Positions 13,133 through 19,446 of a DNA stretch of 30,996 bases are shown in pieces (position 1 is the first letter of the stretch; each line of letters opens with the position of its first letter). The notes below the pieces were generated by a model. That model saw only the letters and a list, made by a program, of their open reading frames with translations, was not told the DNA's origin and did not search any database. Origin of the DNA: Candidatus Methylomirabilota bacterium (lineage in GTDB: Bacteria; Methylomirabilota; Methylomirabilia; Rokubacteriales; CSP1-6). The stretch is from the NCBI GenBank assembly GCA_046726415.1, contig JBKPAK010000032.1, forward strand, positions 1 through 30,996, read 5' to 3'. The position numbers were made by a program, and so were the translations under genes.

Positions 13133-14109
13133 GACAGAGTCCGCGCTGCCGCCCGGGAATCCCGCGCTGGGCTTCGCCCGTCCAAACGGGCGTGGGAGTG
13201 TTTCACGAGGGTGAACGGGCGGTTCAGAAGCGGGCTGGGGTAAGCGCCGAAGCGCAGGCCGTGGGACGGGGTATCGTTGCTGCGATTCCCGCCGGCGCCG
13301 GGCGCTTTCTGGGGGCCCAGCGCATCGCGATCCTAGCGGCCGCGGACGACACCGGGCGCCTCTGGGCGTCACTGATCACCGGAGAGCCCGGCTTCATCAC
13401 CACACCCGACGATCACACGCTGCGCTTGGCCGCCCGTCTACCCGACGCGGATCCCCTCCGCGGCAGTGTGGACGGCGATGCACCGGTCGGCGTTCTCGTG
13501 TTCGATCCGGAACGGCGCCGGCGGCTTCGTCTGAACGGCCGAGTTACCGGCGGGAGCCCCGACTGCATCGACATCCGCGTCGAGGAAGTCTTCGGCAACT
13601 GTCCGAAGTACATTCAGAGCCGGGCGCCGGGAGAGACGGCCATGCATGAGCGCGCGAGGACCAGCCATCGAAGCCCGGCGCTCACGGGGCCGCAGCGGCT
13701 CGTCGTCGAGCGGGCCGATACGTTCTTCATCGCGAGCGCTCATCGGGACGTCGGAGCCGACGCCTCGCATCGCGGCGGCTTGCCGGGCTTCGTACGCGTG
13801 CTGGACGAGCGACGACTGCGCTTCCCTGACTATCCGGGCAACAACATGTTCCAGACTCTCGGCAACATCTCGACGGACCCCCGGGTCGGTCTTCTATTCG
13901 TGGACTTCGACTCGGGTACCACCCTCCAGATCACGGGGCGGGCGCGGATCCTGTGGAATCGTGAGGACTTCGCCGAGCTCGCGGGCGCGGAGCGGGCGGT
14001 TGAGATCGAGATCGACGAGGTCGTGGAGACGGAAGGAGAGGGCCCGCTCGGCTGGCGTTTCCTCGGTTACTCGTCTTTCAACCCCCGACCGCGGGCCGGA
14101 CGGCGCTAG
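13129..14109 (+). CDS. Pyridoxamine 5'-phosphate oxidase family (tandem FMN-binding split barrel) protein
   Basis: [56 protein letters not shown] overlap with the hydrolase stop. Confidence 0.9.
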
Positions 14110-14133
14110 GCGGGGCGGAAGGCTCGTGATAAA

Positions 14134-14172
14134 TGGTGTCCCGGGGTGACTCGAACACCTGGCACGCAGTAG
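14134..14172 (-). tRNA. Degenerate tRNA 3' fragment (att scar); isotype not assignable
   Basis: The reverse complement CTACTGCGTGCCAGGTG-TTCGAGT-CACCCCGGGACA-CCA shows a T-arm, acceptor 3' strand and CCA. No 5' half is present. Confidence 0.65.
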
Positions 14173-14257
14173 TCGAGGGCCGAATGCCGGCGTCGCTATG
14201 CTTCGGCCATGACGATGCGTGCCTCCATCTGTCCCGTGAGTACAATCGCACAGAAAT

Positions 14258-14720
14258 TTACGCCAGCTCCTCCAGCAAGGCTTTGGCCTCCTGGAGATCG
14301 GCAGTGTCAAAGCCCTCGGTAAACCACGCGTAGACCACAGCCAGCAGGTCGTGCGCCTCCTGCCGTTTCCCTTCCTGGTGCCAGAGCCGACTCAGACTCA
14401 TCGCGGCCCGCAACTCCAGCGATTTCGCCTCCTGGCGGCGGGCCACGTCCAAGGCTCGCTGCAACCAGGTCTCCACCTCTGCCTGCGGTGTCCCCGTCTG
14501 CCGCAGGAGCAAGCTCGCCCGGAGGCGATACAGCTCCGCCTCCCCCCAGCGCTCTCCCGTGGCCTGCGCGGCCGCCAGCGCCTCGGCCAGGGTGGCAAGC
14601 CCTTCCTCGACCTGACCCTCTTGCGCGTAGACGTCGGCCAGCAGCGCCAGGAAATATGGCTCCCAGAGCGCGCTCCCAGTCTCCCGCACGGCCGCCAGGT
14701 CCTGCCGGATCTGGCCGATC
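14258..14720 (-). pseudogene. C-terminal TPR-like fragment of an adenylate cyclase/STAND ATPase protein
   Basis: EAELYRL...ARRQEAKSLELRAAMSLSRLW...WFTEGFDTADLQEAKALLEELA*. Similarity stops abruptly at about 14720. Confidence 0.88.
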
Positions 14721-14765
14721 TGTGCCGGGGGGGCGGAGCGGCGGCGGGGGGCGGGGGTGGGGGTG

Positions 14766-15098
14766 CCGAGAACGGCGGTTCCGTCAACTGGGCCTTTAAA
14801 CCGCCTACCGCGGCCTGGCGGCCGCAACCAAGCCGAGGCGACTCGGCTGCGCCGCTTCGCCTCGGACCGACTGGGCATCTCATCTGGTTGACGACGGGGA
14901 CCACGATCGAAGATCGGTGGGCGGCCTGGGACCGAGGCGGCTGATCCTGGGCGTGGCAATCAGCGGCCCCGCTGGCACCGCGCGTTTCGCCGAGTCCGTC
15001 CGGGGGGGAAGATCGGATCTCGTTCTCGATCGCGGATTCGAACCAGGGGGATTGGGCCGGCGGTTGCCCCCTCGCCGGAATTCGTGTGCGATGCGTGA
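14766..15098 (+). ncRNA. Candidate structured non-coding leader or element end
   Basis: Nested stems read by eye: agccgag-GCGA-ctcggct (14831-48), gcggcc-tggc-ggccgc (14810-25), cgcctcgg/ccgaggcg (14858-65/14932-39), gctgat/atcagc, aggggg/ccccct and cgagaacg/cgttctcg. Confidence 0.4.
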
Positions 15099-16530
15099 AT
15101 GGACCAGTTCATCGCCAAGCACGCCGACAAGCTCCAGGGCACCCTTTCGTGCTTCGATCGGGTCTTGTTCCGCGGCTACCTGCCGTTCTTCAGCGGCTAC
15201 GCCATGGCCAGGTTTCTGGAGACCCGCGGGGTCTATCGGCGCGACGTGAAGCGGTTCGTGTTGACGCAGGCGTATCGGCTCAAGGACCACGCGCGGCAGA
15301 CGGCGGCGCGCGAGGGGCGGCCCGCGGTCGAACCCTGCCGGACGTTTTCCTTGCGGTGGCGCGAGGGGGCGGCCTTCATCCAGTCGGCGCGGCGGAAGTG
15401 TCTCATCCTGTACTACTACTTCCTGGACCGAGACTTCGGTCTCATCCACGTGCGCCTGCAGACGTGGTTTCCCCTGCAGCCGCAGGTCTACGTGAACGGC
15501 CACGAGTGGCTGGCGCGCAAGCTGACGCAGCACGGGGTGCGGTACACCAAGCACGACAACGCGTTTCTGTGGCTCGAGGACTTCCCGCGGGCCCAGCGCT
15601 TTGCCGATCGGTTTGTCAGCCTGCCCTGGGTGGCGCTGCTCGACCGGTACGCGCGTCGAGTTAACCCCTTGCTGCGAGACGTGCTGACCCCGATGCAGTA
15701 CTACTGGGTGACGACCCAGTCCGAGTACGCCACCGACCTGGTGTTCAAGAGCCGCCAGCACTTGACGGAGTTCTTCCCCCGCCTGCTGGCGCACAGCACC
15801 CTGTGCTTTTCGGCCCGGGAGGTCATGAGTTTCTTGGGGCGGAAATGGCACGGGAAATTCGAGGGCGAGGTGGTCACGGACCAAGAAGACCTCCGGGGCC
15901 GGTTGCCGGGATGTCGGGTCAAACACCGCATGAAGCGGAACTGGCTGAAGATGTACGACAAGGCCGGGTGGATCCTCCGGGTGGAGACGGTGATCAACGA
16001 CCCGGAGGAGTTTCGCGTGGGCCGGCGGGTGCGCCGCCGCGGGCGCCGGCGCACCGAGTGGGTTCCTCTCAGGAAGAGTGTGGCCTACCTCTTCCGGTAC
16101 CGCGACGTGTCGCTCCAGAGCAACGCGCGGTATCTCAACGCGTTGGCCCAGGTCGAGGATCCGACGTCTGGGCCACGCGGCCTCGATGCCATCACCACCC
16201 GGAAGCGCTTGACCAAAGCCTTCAATCCCGTGGCTCGGCCCGACTGCCAGCTCTTTACCGCGCTCATGAGTGGTGAGTATGCAGTCCACGGCTTCGCGAA
16301 TCGCGATCTCCGCTCCAAGCTGGCGGCGACCGCCATCCGGCTTAGCGACGATCCGACGCGCCAGAGTGCCCAGGTCAGCCGCCTCTGCACCGGCTCCACG
16401 TCTACGGCCTGTGGCGAAGATCCCGCGGTCGCGCCGCTGGCGCGTCACCGCGTTCGGGCAGCGGATCATGAGCACCTCGGTCAAGCTCCGGCAGTGGCAG
16501 TTCCCCGACGAGTACGCTCGGGCTGCGTGA
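15099..16530 (+). CDS. Uncharacterised Rep_trans-like nickase/transposase candidate with C-terminal winged helix; frameshifts near 16385-16410
   Basis: FDRVLFRGYL, YYYFLDRDFG, VNGHEWL, DNAF, QSEYATD, KMYDK, LRVETVIN, GFANRDLR...VSRL..LHVYGLVAKIPRSRRWRVT...ARAA*. Confidence 0.65.
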
Positions 16531-16658
16531 ACTCCCAGAGACTTCTTCGAAAAAATCGGAGATCCAACGAAGGAAGAATCTATGCTCCTCCTCCGTGAGG
16601 AAGATAGTCCGGGACTTCCTAAGCCACCGCCACATCAGCGAGCCCCTCGTCTACAATA

Positions 16659-16728
16659 GCGTCGTCTACCCCGGGCACACCCGGGGGTGCGGAGTCCCGC
16701 TAGAGCGTTACGGGGTCGTAGACGACGC
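16659..16728. other. 70-nt multi-stem structure closed by a perfect 11-bp inverted repeat
   Basis: gcgtcgtctac (16659-69) pairs with gtagacgacgc (16718-28). It encloses ccccggg-caca-cccgggg and gcgg-agtc-ccgc. Confidence 0.6.
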
Positions 16729-17101
16729 AGGTGCCCTCGTGGGGCACGCCTCCTCGAGCCGATGAGCATGGCGGGCAACTCGCACGTCCTCCAGCTGAGC
16801 ATCGCTGCATATCCAGGGTTCGCAGGCCGCGGAAGCGGTAGGGCCTGATGACGGAGCTCCCGAGCCGGGTTCGCCGGAGCTCGCGGCGCTGTCCACGGTG
16901 CTGGCAGAACACGGCGCCCAACGAGACCTGGCCCGGCTCTCGGCAGTGGCTCGGCACGACCCATCCCGGATGGAGCTGACGGCGTGGCGCAACCGACACG
17001 CGCACGCAACCGCGCAGTATACTGCGATCCTCACGGCCGCTGGATGGAGTGGCGGGCCGACGATCATTGATCCCAGGCACGTGGCTGAACGGAGGCGCTG
17101 C

Positions 17102-18153: not shown

Positions 18154-19446
18154 GTGCCGTTCGTCACGGCGCACGGCATCCGTCTCGCCTACGAGCTGTC
18201 GGGACCCGCAGGCGGCCCGGCGTGCGTGCTCATCCACGGCTGGACCGGCAGCATCGTCGAGTGGGCGGCGGTGATCCGACCCCTCAACGACCTGGGCTGG
18301 CGCACGCTCGCGATCGACGGCCCCGGCCACGGCCGCTCCGAGGCGCCGGCGGCCCGCGAGATGTACACGATGCACGCGCTCGCCGACCTCCATCACGAGG
18401 TCGCACGTGTGCTTGGGTACTCACCCGCGGTCGTCATGGGATTCTCGATGGGTGGCGCGATTGCCGAGGAGTACGCGCTCCGTCACCCGCGCTCCGTCCG
18501 TGGCCTCGTCCTGCTCGGCAGCGCGGGCGGCGACTGGATCGACGAGGAAGCGCAGGCAGAGATCGACGAGGCGCTGCCGGTGGCATTCTCCGAGAGGATG
18601 GGCGCGGTCTGGGAGCGACGTGCGCGCCGGCTGTACCCGGAAGAGCTGGACAGGATGAGCGTCGAGGAGCGTGCACGGCGGCGCGAGGCGTTTGCCGCCA
18701 CCTCGGCGGAAGGCTACGTCTACACGCTGCACGGACTTCAAGAGAAGCGGACCACGCTCGGCGCGCTCACGAAGCTCGCCCAGCCGACGCTGATTGTGCA
18801 CGGCGCCGCCGACGACGCGTCGATCATCGAGGCCGCCCGCCGTCTGCACGTGGCGATCCCAGGAAGCTGTTACGTCGTCGTTCCCGACGCGGGGCACTTC
18901 GCGCAGGACGACAATCCCGACGCGCTCAACCATGGGCTCGCGGATTTCCTGTGGGGAGCACGCGCCCCCGACATCTATGCGGCCGCCACCTACCTCAAGT
19001 CGCTTCCGTACATCGCAGGTGATGCCATCGCAGCGGTTGGCTTCTCCCACGGCGGCGGCACCGTGCTTTGGGCGGCCACCGCCGCGGGGGGATACCCGAG
19101 TACGCCGGTCCGGGCATTCGTGGCCTTCTATCCGCCATGTGGCGGCGGCCTGGGCGCGTATCGGGGCTCGGTCCCGGTGCTGCTGCTGCTGGGTGCCAAG
19201 GACGACTGGGCGCGGCCGGGGCCCTGCCAGGCCTGGGCGGAGGAGGCGAGACAGGCAGGGCAACTGGTCACGGCCATCGTGTATCCCGGGGCGCGGCACG
19301 CGTTCGACGCGCGAGGGATCCAGGGCGTAGTGACCGTGCCGGACGCACGAGGGGGTGCGGGCGCCACGATTGCCTACGATCCCCAGGCTCATGCAGACGC
19401 GGAGAAGCAGGTCCGCGAGCTCTTACGCTCGCAGCTTCTTCGTTGA
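18154..19446 (+). CDS. Alpha/beta hydrolase fused in frame to an N-truncated dienelactone-hydrolase-like domain
   Basis: Domain 1: LIHGW, GPGHGRS, GFSMGG, AGHF. Domain 2: GFSHGG, FYPPC, GAKDDW, YPGARHAFD. Confidence 0.8.
   Translation: MPFVTAHGIRLAYELSGPAGGPACVLIHGWTGSIVEWAAVIRPLNDLGWRTLAIDGPGHGRSEAPAAREMYTMHALADLHHEVARVLGYSPAVVMGFSMGGAIAEEYALRHPRSVRGLVLLGSAGGDWIDEEAQAEIDEALPVAFSERMGAVWERRARRLYPEELDRMSVEERARRREAFAATSAEGYVYTLHGLQEKRTTLGALTKLAQPTLIVHGAADDASIIEAARRLHVAIPGSCYVVVPDAGHFAQDDNPDALNHGLADFLWGARAPDIYAAATYLKSLPYIAGDAIAAVGFSHGGGTVLWAATAAGGYPSTPVRAFVAFYPPCGGGLGAYRGSVPVLLLLGAKDDWARPGPCQAWAEEARQAGQLVTAIVYPGARHAFDARGIQGVVTVPDARGGAGATIAYDPQAHADAEKQVRELLRSQLLR

Follow-up and report, generated by a model that had tools for sequence, protein, structure and literature searches.

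The insertion sequence (IS) IS608, of the IS200/IS605 group, lacks terminal inverted repeats and does not duplicate its target; its ends are asymmetric with subterminal hairpins, it inserts 3' of a short sequence that then abuts its left end, and its right end finishes in a short sequence similar to that target. In the bridge (seek) RNA systems of IS110/IS1111 and the omega RNA systems of IS605, a non-coding end lies beside the mobility gene, and insertion is site-specific, into repeated sequences, again without terminal inverted repeats. Plasmid origins of the pT181 type are laid out as a nick site plus a bind site, and the excerpted text of a 2026 paper on Rep-Arvir describes an N-terminal nuclease domain with a TATA-binding protein (TBP) fold joined to a MarR-like winged helix-turn-helix (wHTH) domain, with a DNA hairpin as the origin or cis site; the same excerpts give DUF7845 (PF25227) as an archaea-exclusive replication initiator of archaeal viruses and plasmids (PMC13107129). 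Here, we analyze positions 14766-15098 of a 30,996-nucleotide (nt) stretch of DNA from Candidatus Methylomirabilota bacterium (contig JBKPAK010000032.1; the whole stretch is called the window below). A first-pass annotation had treated this region as one densely structured leader of a nickase-like gene, possibly a guide or scaffold RNA or a single-stranded DNA origin. Our analysis indicates that it is most probably not one RNA but the junction of two units, the end of a genomic repeat resembling a repetitive extragenic palindrome (REP) and the left end of a mobile element, and we propose that the latter is a DNA end with an enzyme-recognized hairpin.

The element resembles IS200/IS605 elements such as IS608 in lacking terminal inverted repeats and target duplication, in its asymmetric ends with subterminal hairpins, in inserting directly 3' of a short specific sequence next to the left end, and in closing its right end with a similar short sequence. 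It differs from them in its protein, which is ~515 amino acids (aa) long with a predicted TBP-like fold plus a winged helix rather than a Y1 HUH enzyme of ~150 aa, in the placement of its hairpin two bases from the proposed cleavage point, and in its target of ~25 bp. With Rep_trans initiators (pT181 RepC/RepD, RepSTK1; PF02486), the element protein is predicted to share the TBP-like saddle fold, and it has an invariant tyrosine, nearby lysines, and invariant acidic residues that may be equivalent to theirs; the hairpin beside a second inverted repeat is also similar to a pT181-type origin. However, there is no sequence match to Rep_trans, the element protein adds a wHTH domain, and its gene stands alone in a chromosomal multi-copy unit of 1.7-2.1 kb, not in a plasmid or phage. 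The two-part architecture predicted for the protein, TBP fold plus MarR-like wHTH, is the one described in the Rep-Arvir excerpts, but the element protein is bacterial, has no PF25227 match, and sits in a transposon-like unit. As in the bridge and omega RNA systems, the element's non-coding end adjoins a mobility gene and insertion is site-specific, into repeats, without terminal inverted repeats, whereas its leader shows neither covarying RNA structure nor loops that match target or donor and varies in both length and sequence across the family. The IS110 DEDD/Tnp recombinase (PF01548/PF02371) has no match in the window protein or its intact relatives. No TnpB/IscB-type RuvC nuclease domain was found either, and the region lies 5' of its gene, whereas omega RNA overlaps the 3' end of the gene.

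Altogether, the element, which is itself unclassified and abundant, probably belongs with the hairpin-ended single-strand or rolling-circle transposons. A more specific reading is that its left end is the single-strand "origin" (hairpin plus inverted repeat) of an unrecognized class of bacterial transposons, spread over many phyla in thousands of copies, with a tyrosine nickase of TBP fold like that of Rep_trans, a winged helix, and a ~25-bp target that is not duplicated; we regard the case for and against this reading as evenly balanced. Literature searches, which did not cover ISfinder, found no paper describing the family.

Element boundaries, copies, and target repeat

The region divides into 42 nt of the REP-like repeat (14766-14807) and 291 nt (14808-15098) from the element's non-coding left end. 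Within the window's own genome, 14749-16590 recurs as a full-length copy on contig C160 (76% identity) and as partial copies on five further contigs (C303, C306, C139, C27, and C133). The boundaries in the window come from relatives in other genomes that are multi-copy units with base-exact ends: a 2085-bp unit in six copies in a Planctomycetaceae metagenome-assembled genome (MAG), units of ~1680 and ~1700 bp in two Gemmataceae MAGs, and a 1706-bp unit in a Terriglobia MAG. At the left boundary, the flank ...CCGCCTA is followed by one variable base and then CGCGGCC; at the right boundary, the element closes with GGAAGAATCTA and the flank continues with TGCTC. Neither the window element nor its multi-copy relatives have terminal inverted repeats, and no target duplication is evident. 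The right ends of the relatives repeat the layout seen in the window, a hairpin and a purine-rich tail closing in CTA, and each end of the element carries a hairpin while the two ends are asymmetric.

The REP-like repeat is ~60-85 nt long and has 20 nhmmer hits in the window's own genome. Among 17 aligned repeat rows, 10 are unoccupied, with CTA running directly into YGCTC, 2 are occupied, and 5 are divergent or lie inside a tandem array. Since the 10 unoccupied repeats read CTA-YGCTC, the window element sits between the CTA and the YGCTC of a repeat. Right flanks in the subfamily begin with YGCKC at all of the sites where they are known (eight of eight), and the left flanks of 19 distinct sites have a common T-rich motif with A as the last base. 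One subgroup has a left flank that closes in ACA and a right end that still closes in CTA, which shows that CTA is not a target duplication. Insertion is highly site-specific: it occurs directly 3' of a short specific sequence (CTA in the window), without duplication, and the target preference is composite and spans ~25 bp.

The repeat hits on contigs C192, C255, C303, C18, and C160 often form clusters of like orientation with spacings of 1-3 kb, and a threefold tandem array of the repeat is present at C160:384-595. The clustered copies of like orientation prompted an integron attC reading of the target repeat, to which the attC core motifs could not be fitted. The repeat itself may be a REP, a miniature element, or a recombination site.

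Some copies are arranged in unusual ways. At L054:2391-5744, in a Gemmataceae MAG, two element copies stand head to tail with the common junction CCTAA; read-through rolling-circle transposition, or insertion beside a right end, would give such an arrangement. In the window's own genome, the right-end tail motif occurs twice in close succession at the right end of C27:1-340 (L007). Solo left-end remnants without a gene are found in the same genome (C133:6564-6750, L008) and at L106, L109, L114, and L121; one of the five retains ~190 nt of leader and the other four end at ~nt 105. These four have one left flank, identical in three of them, with that of L121 differing.

Terminal hairpin and encoded protein

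The proposal of a folded single-stranded DNA substrate or origin is supported for a single feature of the region, one that the first-pass annotation had not listed. This feature is the terminal hairpin, which is directly followed by AACCAAG at 14826-14832. It is the tip of the element family-wide: a hairpin of 5-6 bp, set two bases in from the boundary, and next to it AACCAA, or CGCCCC or ACCCCA in two planctomycete subfamilies. Among 39 loci whose gene start is complete, a strict pattern found the perfect hairpin in 29, across phyla; the other 10 comprise two perfect hairpins with a different flank, one cut by the contig end, five with one mismatch, and two with nothing. In 29 distinct sequences, mismatched ones included, 97.1% of cells pair compared with 89.2% in shuffles, a figure that is biased upward by a set gathered around the hairpin itself, although the stem variants are real. 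Compensatory changes occur in three of the six pairs (11 cells), and the covariation score was reached in none of 500 shuffles.

All of the changes in the stem are Watson-Crick, with no G-U pairs and no one-sided change to G-U, and the loops vary freely. The wobble-free stem fits a DNA role, for which it is weak evidence, and we propose that this is the recognition and nick-site hairpin. Because the loop varies freely, a nick within the loop is unlikely, unlike in pT181. We also considered AACCAA as a DNA guide that pairs with the T-rich flank and rejected this, as the CGCCCC and ACCCCA subfamilies do not have matching flanks.

The downstream gene had been labeled nickase-like, a label that agrees with the TBP-like fold, of the Rep_trans nicking-enzyme kind, predicted for its product. 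The window copy is a pseudogene: it has lost ~32 codons in frame after codon 74 (near 15320) plus five codons further on, and it has two frameshifts, near 16383 and 16411, both of which are needed to read the conserved C-terminus. Its true stop is at 16528-16530, while the annotated open reading frame (ORF), 15099-16598, encodes 499 aa. More than 5170 protein relatives were identified among 8000 scored candidates, typically 513-520 aa long and nearly all unnamed, and a profile search yielded 10046 clusters (50% identity) at E <= 0.001. The relatives span phyla, and many are on contigs of ~2 kb; distant homologs occur on plasmids of cultured bacteria, among them Paraburkholderia and Rhodococcus, where they carry the label ArsR-family regulator or hypothetical protein.

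Pfam and NCBIfam had no match for the 499-aa window ORF or for intact relatives; even at E up to 1, none of five intact relatives matched the NCBIfam IS-family transposase models, and at E up to 10, seven members had no Pfam match, including to Rep_trans (PF02486), DUF7845 (PF25227), and IS200/IS605 (PF01797). A 118-sequence profile searched against PDB found no Rep chain, PHROGs gave a weak transcription-regulator match on the C-terminus and nothing else, and the ESM Atlas returned unnamed clusters only.

The fold was assessed on an AlphaFold2 model that covers residues 1-400 in an intact relative, built from the 118-sequence alignment (pLDDT 94.2, pTM 0.91). It replaced a first model of the whole protein from a 19-sequence alignment (pLDDT 63), searches with which gave winged-helix matches alone. 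Foldseek matched the 1-400 model to RepSTK1 (4cij_A; E 4.7e-4, probability 0.99) and RepDE (4cwe_A; probability 0.95), while its top row by E-value was an unrelated cyclase (probability 0.38). VIA-align placed TATA-binding protein first (1mp9_B; Z 8.4, root-mean-square deviation [rmsd] 3.7, 179 aligned) and also matched the Rep structures 4cij_A (Z 7.0, rmsd 4.8, 189 aligned) and 4cwc_A (Z 7.0, rmsd 6.7, 192 aligned), with the TBP and Rep matches covering residues ~5-390. Residues ~394-513 match MarR/PadR-type winged helices (Z ~9, on the first, poorer model). With middling scores, the models suggest that the protein of intact relatives has a TBP fold similar to that of Rep_trans nicking enzymes, followed by a MarR-like winged helix.

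Eight residues are invariant in the 118 sequences: D20, R21, Y136, N164, E240, Y319, R327, and E329. These include a tyrosine, Y319, within K-M-Y-D-K, and the acidic residues D20, E240, and E329, which, compared by sequence, are candidates for the catalytic tyrosine of Rep_trans motif III (YxxK/YxxKY) and its acidic metal ligands. According to the Rep-Arvir excerpts, mutagenesis of the archaeal protein found E25, Y283, and E303 to be essential (PMC13107129); judged by order along the sequence only, D20, Y319, and E329 may be their counterparts.

Leader structure and conservation

The region 14766-15098 is conserved among related elements. We compared 16 leaders of the subfamily: 4 from the window's own genome, 2 found via the protein, and 10 from a metagenome scan with an exact 19-base pattern inside the first 105 nt, of whose 61 pattern matches 21 were real leader homologs. 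Identity to the window is 87-92% over the first 105 nt (in part an effect of ascertainment, because the scan pattern lies within those 105 nt), 63-76% over the rest of the leader, and 70-92% over the first 240 nt of the ORF. The first 105 nt fold at z -2.1 in the window and at -0.35 to -3.25 in ten relatives (~-2 to -3 in 8 of the 11), which is due to the two hairpins there. The second of these, inverted repeat 2 (IR2; Table 1), is paired in 98.6% of cells in the 16 leaders with zero double changes, and other subfamilies have unrelated hairpins at its position. By analogy with plasmid origins, IR2, which adjoins the proposed nick hairpin, may serve as a binding repeat for the protein.

The bulk of the leader tolerates large changes in relatives. 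Four of the 16 leaders lack ~70 nt (the equivalents of 14930-15005), and the contig of one relative links 14832 to 15084 via 25 other letters, so that ~251 nt are replaced and the leader is ~65 nt long. The distance from hairpin to ATG is mostly 85-123 nt, with others of 188, 291 (the window), 327, 482-504, and 581 nt, and long leaders from different subfamilies have no homology beyond the hairpin and AACCAAG. The remaining 195 nt of the window leader (14913-15107) fold at z +0.9. We considered growth of the leader by tandem duplication, suggested by direct repeats at a 99-nt offset, and rejected it: the units are only ~50% identical, and Tandem Repeats Finder reported nothing.

A promoter-like block abuts the ATG, and L011 and L085 have the same arrangement (TTGC-N-N, 17-18 nt, TGCGAT, 6 nt, ATG) with different intervening sequence. 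A consensus promoter and terminator scan of 14600-15300 called nothing; the scan demands an A as the second base of the -10 hexamer, which the block does not have. Judged from the sequence, the block may be a promoter, in which case the mRNA would be leaderless or nearly so. In RNA-library run X20, contigs cover the repeat, the tip of the left end, and the ORF, and none covers 14854-15057, though contigs cannot show transcription or its absence; run X22 had no match, again among contigs, from which transcription is not readable.

Table 1. Features of the element and its target repeat in the window (positions in nt).
Feature	Position	Strand	Evidence
REP-like repeat: G-rich part, then core closing in CTA; insertion target, outside the element	14723-14807	+	nhmmer
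IS-like element, unclassified, decayed copy, 1775 bp	14808-16582	+	Copies in the same genome; base-exact ends of relatives
Terminal hairpin GCGGCC-TGGC-GGCCGC	14810-14825	+	Only leader feature kept family-wide; covariation
Second inverted repeat IR2: CCGAGGCGA ... TCGCCTCGG enclosing CGGC/GCCG	14833-14865	+	Kept within the subfamily
Remainder of the strongly conserved first 105 nt	14866-14912	+	Identity to relatives
Subfamily-specific spacer, poorly constrained	14913-15063	+	Deletions and replacement in relatives
Promoter-like block: TTGCCC (15064-15069), 17 nt, TGCGAT (15087-15092), 6 nt, ATG	15064-15098	+	Subfamily conservation
Transposase pseudogene	15099-16530	+	Alignment with 18 intact relatives; three-frame translation
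Right end: imperfect hairpin (16544-16549/16557-16562), then ~20 nt closing with GGAAGAATCTA	16531-16582	+	Right-end alignment within the same genome

All of the stems in the first-pass annotation are present to within one base, as seen in the sequence and by an inverted-repeat search: AGCCGAG-GCGA-CTCGGCT at 14831-14848, CGCCTCGG (14858-14865) with CCGAGGCG (14932-14939), cgatc-gaa-gatcg at 14904-14916, CGAGAACG (14767-14774) with CGTTCTCG (15021-15028), cgtcaactgg with ctggttgacg, and cgcggattc (starting at 15031) with gaattcgtg. The dense structure drawn from these stems does not exceed chance. The minimum free energy of 14766-15098 is -156.4 kcal/mol compared with -157.4 +/- 5.3 kcal/mol in dinucleotide shuffles (z +0.19), an equal or better fold is reached by 54 of 100 shuffles, and the element-only leader 14808-15107 gives z +0.29. 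Two of the helices, 14767-14774/15021-15028 and 14783-14792/14885-14894, join the flank with the element because their 5' arms lie left of 14808; moreover, the 15021-15028 arm is particular to the window copy, and relatives differ there.

Covariation likewise gave no sign of a conserved RNA fold. The four internal helices (29 pairs) show zero compensatory changes in the 16 leaders, with 84.0% of cells paired compared with 84.3% in shuffles, and individual pairs are broken in 9 of 16, 14 of 16, and 13 of 14 sequences. An RNAalifold consensus has an unfavorable covariation term (+1.11), and its pairs with double changes number 4, where shuffles have 1.5 +/- 1.0 and slid controls have 2-4. One helix is suggestive (alignment columns 66-78 with 220-237), staying paired through an A-U to C-G change in a single lineage. 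The proposed switch needs the motif CCGAGGCG to be present twice, and 4 of the 16 leaders have lost the second copy. We searched for leader loops that match the target, and the longest identity or complementarity between flank and leader was within the shuffled expectation at 15 of 15 sites. A search of 14000-17000 against Rfam at E <= 1 returned only CsrC, at 13.4 bits (gathering threshold 61; E 0.53), on the minus strand and outside the region. The first-pass observation that the leader has no ORF or Shine-Dalgarno sequence agrees with our data: indels among the copies are not multiples of three, and no Shine-Dalgarno-like run precedes the ATG.

Proposed mechanism, alternative readings, and other genes of the window

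In the mechanism that we propose, the enzyme would recognize the terminal DNA hairpin and AACCAA, two bases from the element boundary, and would nick a single strand beside the hairpin, after CTA, at both ends. The protein would bind the left-end hairpin, probably via its winged helix, as has been proposed for Rep-Arvir, and the element would move as single-stranded DNA, by peel-and-paste or rolling-circle transposition, into a new CTA site. In the window subfamily, IR2 and ~50 further conserved bases would extend the binding site in the manner of a pT181-type bind-site repeat; a loosely constrained spacer would follow, and then the putative promoter abutting the ATG.

Several points weigh against this reading. 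No transposition intermediate, circle junction, or nick was seen. The link to Rep_trans or DUF7845 is absent at the sequence level in the Pfam and PDB profile searches, and the fold match is middling (TM-scores 0.23/0.32, Z 7-8.4), with best VIA-align scores of 7-8 being common. A left-flank search of 30 relatives for an orthologous empty site of the window locus gave only paralogs of a TPR fragment (described below), and the unoccupied repeats available as evidence are paralogous only. The pairing rate of the terminal hairpin and the identity of the first 105 nt both carry the biases given above; in two of the own-genome copies, the left end is not clearly better conserved than the ORF (87% compared with 92%, and 88% compared with 81%). 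Finally, the first 105 nt are conserved far beyond the needs of a 16-nt hairpin, and this conservation, together with folding somewhat better than shuffles, leaves room for an extra function.

Base-exact ends and a target are now described for a very abundant element that annotation pipelines miss. To our knowledge, the replication of plasmids, phages, and archaeal viruses is so far the only process linked to the TBP/Rep_trans enzyme fold. Were the TBP-fold protein confirmed to be the transposase, single-strand or rolling-circle transposition would gain a third, unrelated nicking-enzyme fold beside HUH enzymes. For testing this, the 16-nt hairpin with CTA would be a simple substrate, and recognizing these elements would improve annotation and account for many assembly breaks in soil metagenomes.

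Among the alternatives, it is unlikely that the leader is chiefly a 5' untranslated region in which an upstream arm masks the ribosome-binding site and start codon, stopping translation of read-through transcripts from outside. Such a role would suit short-leader relatives from other phyla, of which 13 of 24 fold at z <= -3 and down to -7.75; the 3' arm of their long hairpin takes in the Shine-Dalgarno sequence (GGAG) and reaches the start codon, and complementarity is kept between arms whose sequences vary among subfamilies. The structured short leaders include L031, L034, L052, L057, L063, and L076. Their hairpin is a genuine structure of the leader, for which a translational fold-back is the simplest reading. 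However, the window subfamily and its nearest short-leader relatives (L011, L085, L028, and L037) do not have the hairpin (z -1.2 to +0.3), no Shine-Dalgarno sequence precedes the window ATG, and in the first-pass helix closest to the ATG (15031-15039/15078-15086), one pair is disrupted in 13 of 14 sequences and a second pair in 6 of 14.

We consider it quite unlikely that all pairings other than the terminal hairpin are chance in DNA of 68% G+C and that the mid-leader of this decayed copy is functionless. The z values of +0.19, +0.29, and +0.9 are what chance pairing would give, the element is a pseudogene copy that breaks pairs kept by relatives (e.g., C-C at columns 74/224), and relatives tolerate both the 70-nt deletion and the 251-nt replacement. 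Nevertheless, elements with proteins of ~70% identity have leaders that align from end to end, with 63-76% identity beyond the first 105 nt, which indicates that the leader is under some constraint in active relatives.

A guide or scaffold RNA, encoded by the leader or its first ~105 nt and choosing the target with the nickase in the way of bridge or omega RNA, is very unlikely: the specificity of insertion at a composite ~25-bp target, an identity of 87-92% over the first 105 nt where the ORF has 70-84%, the folding of those 105 nt, the one suggestive helix, and a relative's RNA-library contig that extends from the tip of the left end into the ORF (which does not show transcription) would all suit it, but the whole leader folds at shuffle level, none of its 29 listed pairs covary, the double changes fall within the range of the slid controls, neither Rfam nor the flanks match, the bulk of the leader is absent or replaced in relatives, subfamilies with unrelated leaders of 65-580 nt have a similar target motif, the changes in the terminal hairpin are Watson-Crick without G-U, and a promoter at the leader's 3' end would leave most of it untranscribed.

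Two further ORFs of the window were noted. On the left, the minus-strand ORF fragment at 14253-14722 has TPR repeats, and its match to TOMM-type kinase/cyclase regulators is confined to their last ~108 residues. A congener and contig C147 have the intact gene of which this fragment is a truncated paralog (91% identical), and the homology to this paralog stops at 14722, exactly where the REP-like repeat starts. On the right, a plus-strand ORF of 430 aa at 18154-19446 has an Abhydrolase_1 match and, in its C-terminal part, a dienelactone-hydrolase match.

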